From NCBI GenBank assembly GCA_045803545.1, contig JBJMOW010000002.1, positions 256,001-320,000 of the forward strand: a stretch of DNA of 64,000 nucleotides, read 5' to 3'. Position 1 is the first letter of the stretch, and each line of letters opens with the position of its first letter. Below are positions 28,820 to 31,051 of this stretch, piece after piece. Position numbers and translations under genes: made by a program. The stretch is from Gemmatimonadaceae bacterium (lineage in GTDB: Bacteria > Gemmatimonadota > Gemmatimonadetes > Gemmatimonadales > Gemmatimonadaceae). The notes below the pieces were generated by a model. That model was given only the letters and a program-made list of their open reading frames with translations. It was not told the DNA's origin and did no database searches.

Positions 28820-28922
28820 TTTACTGTGATATCGAAGTTTAAATACCCACTCTAGTTCGCAGCTCGCAACTGATGCGACGTGCGGGCGAGAGTGGGTATT
28901 TGCACTTCGGCAGCGCGCGCAC

Positions 28923-28996
28923 GGCTGGGTAGCTCAGCTGGTTAGAGCACGGCACTCATAATGCCGGGGTCGCGGGTTCGAGTCCCGCCCCAGCTA
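28923..28996 (+). tRNA. tRNA with CAT anticodon, probably elongator tRNA-Met (Ile2 not excluded)
   Basis: Acceptor GGCTGGG/CCCAGCT, anticodon arm CGGCA-CTCATAA-TGCCG, T arm GCGGG-TTCGAGT-CCCGC. Confidence 0.93.
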
Positions 28997-29093
28997 TTTC
29001 GGCGAAAGACGGGCAAGTCCCTAATCTCACAAAAGGTTACGGGCTTGCCCGTTCTGCATTCCGGCGGGCGCTTGACTGGTCACTGAACCACTT

Positions 29094-29115
29094 AAGCACC
29101 ACGAGAAGCACCACG
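29094..29115 (+). repeat. Candidate integrase arm-type sites, left pair (AAGCACCACG x2)
   Basis: Copies at 29094 and 29106, 12-bp period. Confidence 0.7.
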
Positions 29116-29271
29116 GCCCTCCGGGAGCCAGAAATCCGCCCTCGGCGGAACCCGTTCACGTTCGATCCGCGCAACCTCACAACCGACCCGGTCAGGTGCG
29201 CTGAGATCGAGCGAGAGCAGGCAGCGCTCTTCGCGATGTGGCTGTCCGATACCTGGGCGAAGATCCTCTGA
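29116..29271 (+). pseudogene. Apparent 3' fragment of a phage-like gene
   Basis: Open frame with no plausible start, ending ...WLSDTWAKIL* in a TGATG overlap with the next gene. Confidence 0.45.
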
Positions 29272-29783
29272 TGAAGGGCCCGAGCTTCAATCTGGTGCCC
29301 CTCAATCGGGACGAAGCCGACGCATTCGTTCGGCAGCACCATCGCCATCATGGTCGCTCAGCCGGCCACCGCTTCGCGCTGGGAGCAGCTGTCGGCAGCG
29401 AGATCGTCGCCGTCTGTCTTGTCGGACGTCCGGTCGCGCGCGGCAACCAAGACGGCTTCACCGTCGAAGTCACCCGCCTCGCGTCCGATGGGACGAAGAA
29501 CGCCTGCTCGTTTCTCTACGGGGCAGCCCGGCGAGCTGCTTTCGCGCTCGGCTTTCGGCGGATCATCACCTACACGCTGCCCGAAGAAGGCGGCGCGTCA
29601 CTCCGCGGTTCAGGGTTTCGTCTGGTCGGTGAGCGCGGCGGCGGGTCGTGGTCGGCCAGGCACAGGACATCTGGCTGTCCGCTACGTCATCATGGGCCCG
29701 GTGCTGATGGTTTGGGGCGATCTCGAAAGCGCCGTCTACCGTTGGAGCTCGGTCATCTCGTGGAAGTTCCTCGCGGGGTGTGA
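29271..29783 (+). pseudogene. XF1762-like phage protein, C-terminus replaced after about 29654
   Basis: EA.AFV..HHRHH, VGRPVAR..DG.TVEVTRLASDGTKNACSFLY, ITYTL..E.GASLR..G, GGGSWS; family similarity ends there. Confidence 0.7.
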
Positions 29784-30162
29784 TCTCCAATATTTCGAAT
29801 CAAAGTGCGAGGCGAGTCCCAAGGGTCGGGACTACTTCGACTTCGACACTGATCTCGCCCTCGCGGACTTCGACGAGGTCATTAAACAGCGCGTCGACGA
29901 AGGTTGGGATGAATCGAACCCCGACCTTATAGCAGAAGCGCGGCGCACGATCAGGTACGGCGCTGATGAATGGCGCGAGTGGTTGCGCGCGAACGGCCAT
30001 GAACTGTTCGGCGACAGCTGGTATGAGTGGGTGCCAGACCTCGGAAAACGGATCGCTCAGACCTGCGCCGCGCACCTCGTCGGGATCAAGATGGCGGTCG
30101 CTCAAATGGCCGAAAAATCGACGGATTCTCAGCCCGCGTTGGCAGGCGCAGAAGCACCATGA
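29653..30162 (+). pseudogene. 5'-truncated phage-like hypothetical gene
   Basis: Protein-like sequence from RPGTGHL...LMVWGDLESAVYRW...CDLQYF.SKC.AS; the upstream part of this ORF is a shadow of the XF1762-like gene. Confidence 0.55.
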
Positions 30163-30173
30163 GAAGCACCATG
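30152..30173 (+). repeat. Candidate integrase arm-type sites, right pair (AAGCACCATG x2)
   Basis: Copies at 30152 and 30164; same period and orientation as the left pair. Confidence 0.7.
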
Positions 30174-30254
30174 ACGCTGCGTGTAGGTGCCGCAGTACGC
30201 CGCACGATGCCGTTGGTAAGGCGGGTGTACGCTATTATAGTAGGGGCAACCCTA

Positions 30255-30299
30255 ACTCATAATGCCGGGGTCGGGAGTTCGAGTCTCCCCCCAGCTATT
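30255..30299 (+). repeat. att site: displaced 3' half of tRNA-Met
   Basis: ACTCATAATGCCGGGGTC-GGGAG-TTCGAGT-CTCCC-CCCAGCTA; 5' half of the tRNA absent. Confidence 0.9.
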
Positions 30300-30317
30300 C
30301 CCTAAACGCGGTCGGCA

Positions 30318-30436
30318 ATGACGATTCGGCGGATGGACAACGTCCTCATCGTTGTCGACGACCTCGAGGCGGCCAACGCTTTCTTTCGCCGAACTTGGTA
30401 TGGAGCTCGAAGGCGAGACGACGGTCGAGGCCGAGG
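30318..30436 (+). pseudogene. VOC/glyoxalase family pseudogene fragment
   Basis: MTIRRMDNVLIVVDDLEAANAFF, one extra base near 30387, then AELGMELEGETTVE, then truncated. Confidence 0.75.
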
Positions 30437-30439
30437 GCA

Positions 30440-31051
30440 TCATTCTCGGATTGGCCGAGGACCTCCGCTCATACCGCGGAAGCGCAGTAGCAAAGACACG
30501 AGCGTCAACCCAATAACTGCCCCCACAGCGTTCAGAATCACGTCGTTGACGTCCGCTAATCGATAGCTACCCCAGGCTCGCGAAAAGTACTGAACGGTCT
30601 CGACGCTGATTGAAACAGCAATCGCGATCAGTATTCCCTTCAAAAAGCCGATACGCCTCCAGGCGAGCGGGATCAGGATGCCCAGCGGGACAAAGAGCAA
30701 CACGTTGCCCCTTGCGTTGTACAGGCAAAAGAATCGGGCATTCGGATCTGTGCGTGAGATCGCGGGCGGACAGGTCAGCGCTGCCAGATTTGGGTGCAGC
30801 TCCATTCCCATCGTATCGTCGGCATGCAAGCGCGATGGACGGTTGGGGGCGAGCGTAGCAGAGGCAAGGCCGGAGAGATAAAGGACGAAGGTCAGGAGCA
30901 CGAGTTCGCGTCGTAAAGCCAGCGGTTGTCTCGAAGTGCGAAGGCGGTACAACCGAAAGAGCAGCCAACACGGAACGACGATCGCGCTCAGGGCGAAAAA
31001 CGGAAAGAAAAAACTGCGATATACGAGAAACGGATAGAATAGACGAGGCAT
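30440..31051 (-). CDS. VanZ family membrane protein
   Basis: GNVLLFVPLG, S.S.E..QY, R.ADVNDVILN..G. Confidence 0.88.
   Translation of the reverse strand: MPRLFYPFLVYRSFFFPFFALSAIVVPCWLLFRLYRLRTSRQPLALRRELVLLTFVLYLSGLASATLAPNRPSRLHADDTMGMELHPNLAALTCPPAISRTDPNARFFCLYNARGNVLLFVPLGILIPLAWRRIGFLKGILIAIAVSISVETVQYFSRAWGSYRLADVNDVILNAVGAVIGLTLVSLLLRFRGMSGGPRPIRE

Follow-up and report, generated by a model that had tools for sequence, protein, structure and literature searches.

A probable 1.3-kb prophage remnant in a Gemmatimonadaceae tRNA-Met gene and a reading frame that crosses attP in a related phage

CIMEs (cis-mobilizable elements) and microCIMEs have lost their integration and transfer genes and kept attL and attR, with classical CIMEs measuring 1.2-13 kb according to the available text of two papers (PMC5704250, PMC7563491). 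The element described here lies in a window of 64,000 nucleotides, the whole stretch of a Gemmatimonadaceae genome that was analysed. It resembles the CIMEs of those texts in keeping attL and attR after the loss of integration and transfer genes, in a size within the 1.2-13 kb range and in its place in a tRNA hotspot with tandem remnants (PMC5704250, PMC7563491). Unlike CIMEs as there described, it appears to stem from a tailed temperate phage and not from an ICE or IME, and it has no intact cargo gene. Its ends match a terminase-bearing phage and its interior genes belong to PHROG families, and it is therefore filed as a defective prophage remnant, though CIME-like in working. Phage genes lie between phage att sites, and genes for excision, replication or particles are missing; as it has no integrase of its own, it does not group with phage satellites, IMEs or MGIs either.

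Cryptic ('grounded') prophages, in the part of PMC6379469 available, are likewise unable to excise alone and reduced by deletion, whereas here about 3% of the inferred parent remains, the att sites are intact and it is the recombinase that has been lost, not the sites. With the class A anticodon-loop tRNA islands, as the accessible text of PMC4383910 presents them, the element shares a tRNA 3' fragment displaced downstream and identity starting at the anticodon loop; it would be rejected by the filters given there, because it is shorter than 2 kb and lacks an integrase. The same text describes integrase genes that extend across attP in Mx8 and SSV (PMC4383910). A literature search found no prophage-integration paper for the phylum Gemmatimonadota. 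The kind of remnant is already known, and the stump itself is ordinary genome decay; what is new is the attP-bridging frame of the parent family.

The window holds two tRNA-Met genes, of which the second, presumably of the elongator type from its sequence features, is the insertion target. A first, sequence-only reading of this DNA had pointed out a second copy, 1301 bp further on, of the tRNA 3' half beginning at the anticodon loop, and tandem AAGCACCAYG pairs with a 12-bp period inside both ends. Both observations hold: the two halves share 45 nt at 91% identity, and the motif copies were found at 29094/29106, 97 nt after the tRNA end, and at 30152/30164, 81 nt before the repeat. A search for the pattern of arms plus core yielded L056, a 43,209-bp phage contig (CheckV 100%), which serves as the reference for the following features.

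28923-28996, plus strand: target gene tRNA-Met(CAT), from the tRNA call
28954-28998, plus strand: attL homology block formed by the tRNA 3' half (anticodon loop onward), with T-stem allele 1
29008-29052, plus strand: P'-side hairpin just behind the tRNA
29094-29115, plus strand: P' arm-type direct-repeat pair, period 12, the same pair as in phage L056 and in the prophage end L120
29271-29654, plus strand: Mom-like gene (phrog_1384), cut after about codon 128
29652-29655, no strand: fusion junction (about 29653), at which both genes are cut and the phage interior was presumably lost
29656-30162, plus strand: phrog_5051 gene with ~45 residues missing from its start; the stop codon falls within the first P-arm repeat
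30152-30173, plus strand: P arm pair of arm-type direct repeats (period 12), at a distance of 104 nt from the core, which follows it, as in L056
30255-30299, plus strand: attR homology block, tRNA 3' half, T-stem allele 2

The U tail of the hairpin at 29008-29052 is weak, and the terminator scan made no plus-strand call. In L056 the order is an xis-like gene, Int (a tyrosine integrase of 390 aa), a short ORF of 74 aa, the P arm pair, the tRNA-Met 3' half, a hairpin, the P' arm pair, accessory genes and the terminase. The right end of the element is 85% identical to L056 over 155 nt, and the left end 70% identical. Because L056 joins both arms as an attP beside xis and integrase, the two ends in the window are real att ends, which bears out the earlier suggestion of attL and attR with the arm-type repeats of a tyrosine integrase; this integrase may be of the anticodon-loop type. 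This full-length relative has the motif at its ends, and its spacing from P arm to core, 104 nt, is that of the window; on the P' side the spacing is 97 nt in the window, 118 nt in L056 and 76 nt in L120. The latter is the left end of a prophage that occupies the same divIC-tRNA locus, shares the P' arm and the lead frame and has a terminase. The direct repeats on both sides of the core, common to the window and L056, make up a lambda-type (arm plus core) arrangement, and their position suggests that the 22-bp repeats would be bound by the integrase.

The tandem 22-mer occurs twice in the 3.70-Mb assembly (93% complete), both times at this element, with about 2e-6 occurrences expected from base composition. 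By itself the arm motif is not diagnostic: of 74 matches to the motif 20-mer in metagenome and genome contigs a single one lies beside this tRNA, many are His/Lys/Glu-type coding repeats, and none of the other 73 has an L056-type Int at E<=1e-3. Among nine viral contigs with the 18-mer, Int and core accompany it in L056 only. The one exact 22-mer match in viral contigs (L035) has no tRNA and a different context and was put aside as unrelated; likewise, two of the three viral-contig matches to the arm-plus-core pattern are chance matches in coding DNA, which leaves L056 as the real one. The actual parent phage was not found, as L056 lacks the Mom-like gene and has another last gene before the P arm; homologous viral loci sought with the phrog_5051 piece, P0001 and P0145 gave none, and the L056 Int retrieved only L056. 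For practical use, the element defines a tRNA-Met attB/attP pair with arm sites, for which L056 offers the matching Int and Xis, and it could serve as an integration tool.

The sequence-only reading had overlooked what lies inside the element, namely two truncated phage genes, and about 0.8 kb of inserted DNA beyond attR. The Mom-like fragment matches phrog_1384 at E 4e-29; in place of the ~20 conserved C-terminal residues it has a tail out of frame that runs to 29783, and all 12 aligned Mom homologues (of 120 listed) run about 20 residues past the point at which the window copy diverges. The second fragment matches the phrog_5051 profile at E 4e-11 and lacks the first ~45 residues in comparison with 10 aligned homologues (of 24 found) of 188-214 aa. 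Its GAEAP/GAKAP C-terminal tail, encoded here by the arm repeat, is also present in 3 of the 10, and the gene is therefore a natural neighbour of the P arm. The interior contains no intact cargo and looks as if two cut phage genes had been fused by accident. The absence of internal stops from both fragments suggests a recent loss. The arms show no better preservation than the pseudogene pieces they enclose, so that their state is explained by recency.

We consider the element, with a probability of about 0.7, to be a recent and extreme prophage remnant without sign of mobility, whose parent, likely of about 43 kb, had inserted in the tRNA-Met gene. A temperate phage of that likely size would have integrated, and an internal deletion would have removed everything between the first and last phage genes, the integrase included, leaving behind attL, attR and both arm pairs. 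The size of the parent, taken from L056, the loss by one or several nested deletions and the recent age are all inferred. The chance that one random deletion in a 43-kb prophage leaves both stumps this short is about 4e-4, so that a further assumption is needed, whether nested deletions, selection or a minicircle origin; these are proposals, and nested deletions and a minicircle would give the same sequence.

The minicircle origin, although unlikely, survives best among the alternatives. On this view the element was small from the start: while the phage was free and circular, a deletion over a short range would have produced a 1.3-kb attP minicircle, which the integrase of the phage inserted in trans while the helper was lost; the non-autonomous piece would have moved a single time. 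Across attP in the circular form, the distance between the breakpoints would be small, about 1.26 kb (655 nt and 602 nt from the cores), so that the 4e-4 coincidence falls away, and the product, with its single junction, would be identical in sequence to that of a prophage deletion. A single junction is also left by nested deletions, however, and this course of events requires infection, integration of a fragment and survival of the cell without the helper, for which there is no direct trace.

A maintained non-autonomous mini-island, excised and spread by helper phages and kept for its mobility in trans as the sequence-only reading had proposed, is considerably less probable still. Both cores and both arm pairs are intact, the P arm spacing equals that of L056, and the element is present in X1, X2 and X3, three runs of one study of which X1 may be the source sample. 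X6, a fourth run of the same study, contains a near-identical strain with an empty site (joint 28998 to 30307), and X7, from a second study, a 212-nt left-end piece with 5 differences. The tRNA at the empty site of X6 has the attL allele and a 1-nt flank difference, however, and it is therefore not a precise product of anticodon-loop excision; the X7 piece, a left end only, would fit a related full phage. Absence of the interior, which is uncovered in X4, X5, X6 and X8, can be demonstrated only where a contig joins across, as in X6. No attP-circle joint was found in the contigs of eight runs, which are shallow and drop rare forms. Comparison of the locus across strains gave empty sites, in X6 and in the relative G014, and no second copy: the phrog_5051 protein had no match in the 108 other genus genomes, many of them incomplete, the arm-plus-core pattern had none in 400 class genomes, and both ends were found together at none of the 74 loci with the 20-mer.

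The element also has no intact cargo, replication gene or cognate integrase. As had been claimed, there is no integrase between the ends, since none of the four PF00589 matches in the genome falls in the window; from their neighbours these four recombinases can be read as XerD, XerC, an integron-like enzyme and the integrase of a tRNA-Pro island. A search for tRNA-Met-linked integrases flanked by the motif had been proposed. Phage L056 has such an integrase, and none was found in the assembly of the window's genome: the best tblastn hit to the L056-type Int has E 1e-3, at the locus read as XerD, and a profile search for it matched only the three non-island recombinases. The L056-type integrase family itself occurs in 13 of 301 family genomes (E<=1e-50), many times beside tRNA-Met. 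The assembly is 93% complete, and an integrase could be missing from it. The tRNA-Pro island integrase was considered as a helper in trans, given the GCACCA core common to the arms, and was judged non-cognate because it aligned over only 44-66 residues at about 30%. Its island (G000:C4:586892-598380) spans 11.5 kb and has its own integrase and period-12 arm pairs with the GCACCA core in the opposite orientation. At G000:C4:1001939-1005053 two more tRNA-Pro 3' halves, neither called as a full tRNA, lie about 3.1 kb apart with no PF00589 match between them, a second integrase-less islet.

No packaging site or oriT was recognised by eye in the element, which by itself is most likely immobile; that it could be excised in trans is plausible. 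Under the prophage reading, an incoming phage of the same family could excise the remnant as a 1301-bp circle, which would be lost because it can neither replicate nor be packaged; alternatively, a family phage that integrates in tandem could take it along in cis.

Assembly collapse of a larger prophage, to which the short and shallow contigs and the want of a single piece spanning the whole element might point, is barely credible and is dismissed: an independent short-read contig from X2 bridges the junction (29540-29714, 0 differences, more than 31 nt on either side), contigs from X1 and X3 cross it with shorter overhangs, the X1 depth is flat (about 4-6 inside the element, 4-5 in the covered flank pieces), and the genome has no Terminase_6N match and no L056 gene elsewhere.

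The four differences between the two tRNA halves make up a compensated T-stem allele, found in an intact tRNA in other members of the genus. Crossover in the anticodon loop should place the T-stem allele of the phage in the intact tRNA. The intact tRNA here shares its allele with the empty sites of G014 and X6, and the attR allele is that of L056 and of the two closest attP-spanning proteins, a distribution that suggests strand exchange or resolution 3' of the T stem. Against such an exchange, identity starts at the anticodon loop in the attR and attP sites compared, two more distant phages (L196, L199) have the other allele, and in X4/X5 the attR-type allele of a related strain is followed by that same VanZ flank.

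In G014, the closest relative found (85% identity over the upstream flank), the empty locus consists of the tRNA followed directly by a hairpin and a Pal/OmpA-like gene. The element and the ~0.8 kb beyond attR (a broken VOC gene and VanZ) are insertions because both are absent from this locus. The VOC/glyoxalase pseudogene (30318-30480) has a frameshift and an internal deletion and is followed by VanZ (30440-31051, minus strand); this segment is an insertion of older date, and its far end has no att copy. The interval between tRNA and Pal is a hotspot, ranging from 51 bp to 11 kb in the 23 loci, out of 63, that have both markers, and behind tRNA-Met the relatives show several decayed islands, broken integrases and one-armed islets. 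One of these is in G028, where the first 3.5 kb behind the same tRNA-Met (L036) hold tandem integrase-less islets on the minus strand, the first of 2.3 kb with an intact peptidase-like gene and the right arm pair only, the second of 1.2 kb with a shorter att copy. In G047 (L039, 3051-3276) a tRNA-Met 5' half broken at the anticodon loop precedes a complete tRNA-Met that has a different anticodon stem, and the 3' half that matches the broken 5' half is found 10 kb on. Between the two tRNA-Met genes of the window lies an inverted repeat with 36-bp arms (28833-28909); in the same place relatives have other hairpins or multi-kb inserts (G018, G029).

With regard to the parent family, positions 10006-10398 of L056 hold a frame of 130 codons whose start lies on the stop of the gene preceding the P arm; it continues across the tRNA half and the hairpin and ends on the start of the next gene. 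Its two parts are found at the opposite ends of the element.

30159-30305, plus strand: 5' part of the bridging frame, its ATG overlapping the phrog_5051 stop (ATGA), with 33 codons to the core
28954-29271, plus strand: 3' part of the bridging frame, open for 104 codons from the core, its stop overlapping the Mom-like start (TGATG)

In the integrated state the 5' part is cut off by a host-side stop, and the 3' part has no ATG, GTG or TTG of its own until 12 codons before its stop. The window keeps both halves in register despite several indels in comparison with L056, and the frame would be whole only on excised DNA. It has no PHROG match. Of the five homologues returned by a protein search, two are full length and resemble the halves in the window more closely than L056 does; the homologues were not added to the count below because they had been found through being open.

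For this count, att sites were sorted by the direction of the integrase, and the window by its homology to L056. An in-frame start overlapping a stop 20-60 codons upstream of the core is present at 7 of the 8 sites with the integrase pointing into the core (5 of 6 when L138 and L139, which come from the unpublished genomes G453 and G454, are left out), against 0 of 8 in the opposite layout, 0 of 6 unsorted sites and about 0.1 per site in shuffles. The pattern had been seen by eye in five of the eight before the test, and only L195, L196 and L199 are therefore prospective. L196 has its start 20 nt within the end of the integrase gene and not on the stop of that gene, and in L138 the integrase has a frameshift. 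The window is related to L056 (aligned score 76 of 100); the others score 32-51. At the eighth site (L195, 2803-4068) it is the integrase frame that reads across the tRNA-Met core, and its stop comes 21 codons beyond the core. On the P' side, a frame open for at least 45 codons and ending on the next start was found in 5 of 7 sites, L202 and L195 being the exceptions, and in 2 of 11 controls. Among the phage-type members, L196, L199 and L207 also have a bridging frame coupled to both an upstream stop and a downstream start.

The frame may keep ribosomes on the transcript across the tRNA half and the hairpin, in the excised phage only. Tentatively, and at somewhat less than even odds, we propose for this Gemmatimonadota phage family that attP lies mid-operon and that the coupled frame acts as an excision-gated switch, preserved whole in the remnant. 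Only after excision would ribosomes carry expression on to the accessory and packaging genes that lie downstream; in the prophage the tRNA transcript, being untranslated, would stop at the hairpin. If the frame does gate expression, the prophage would silence late genes that lie behind a strong tRNA promoter and excision would switch them on; the 1.3-kb remnant would then be a ready-made minimal test cassette.

Rewiring of a gene or transcript by att recombination has precedents in mycobacteriophage BPs, whose repressor is split by attP, and in the retroregulation by lambda sib, and the bridging frame would resemble both in this respect. Unlike the BPs gene, it is no repressor, and it overlaps an upstream stop and a downstream start. 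L195 is of the Mx8 type, and the rewiring of a gene or transcript is likewise shared with Mx8 and SSV as described in the available text of PMC4383910. Unlike in Mx8 and SSV as there described, a separate small frame and not the integrase crosses attP in the lineage of the window and in L056. Literature searches, which mostly miss subscription papers, found no separate coupled frame that bridges attP. Lastly, the P arm of the window contains a promoter-like site (30213-30241) that scores 9/12, near chance level, and whose -10 region falls inside a 17-nt block identical in L056; it could be a core-facing promoter or an Xis/IHF site.
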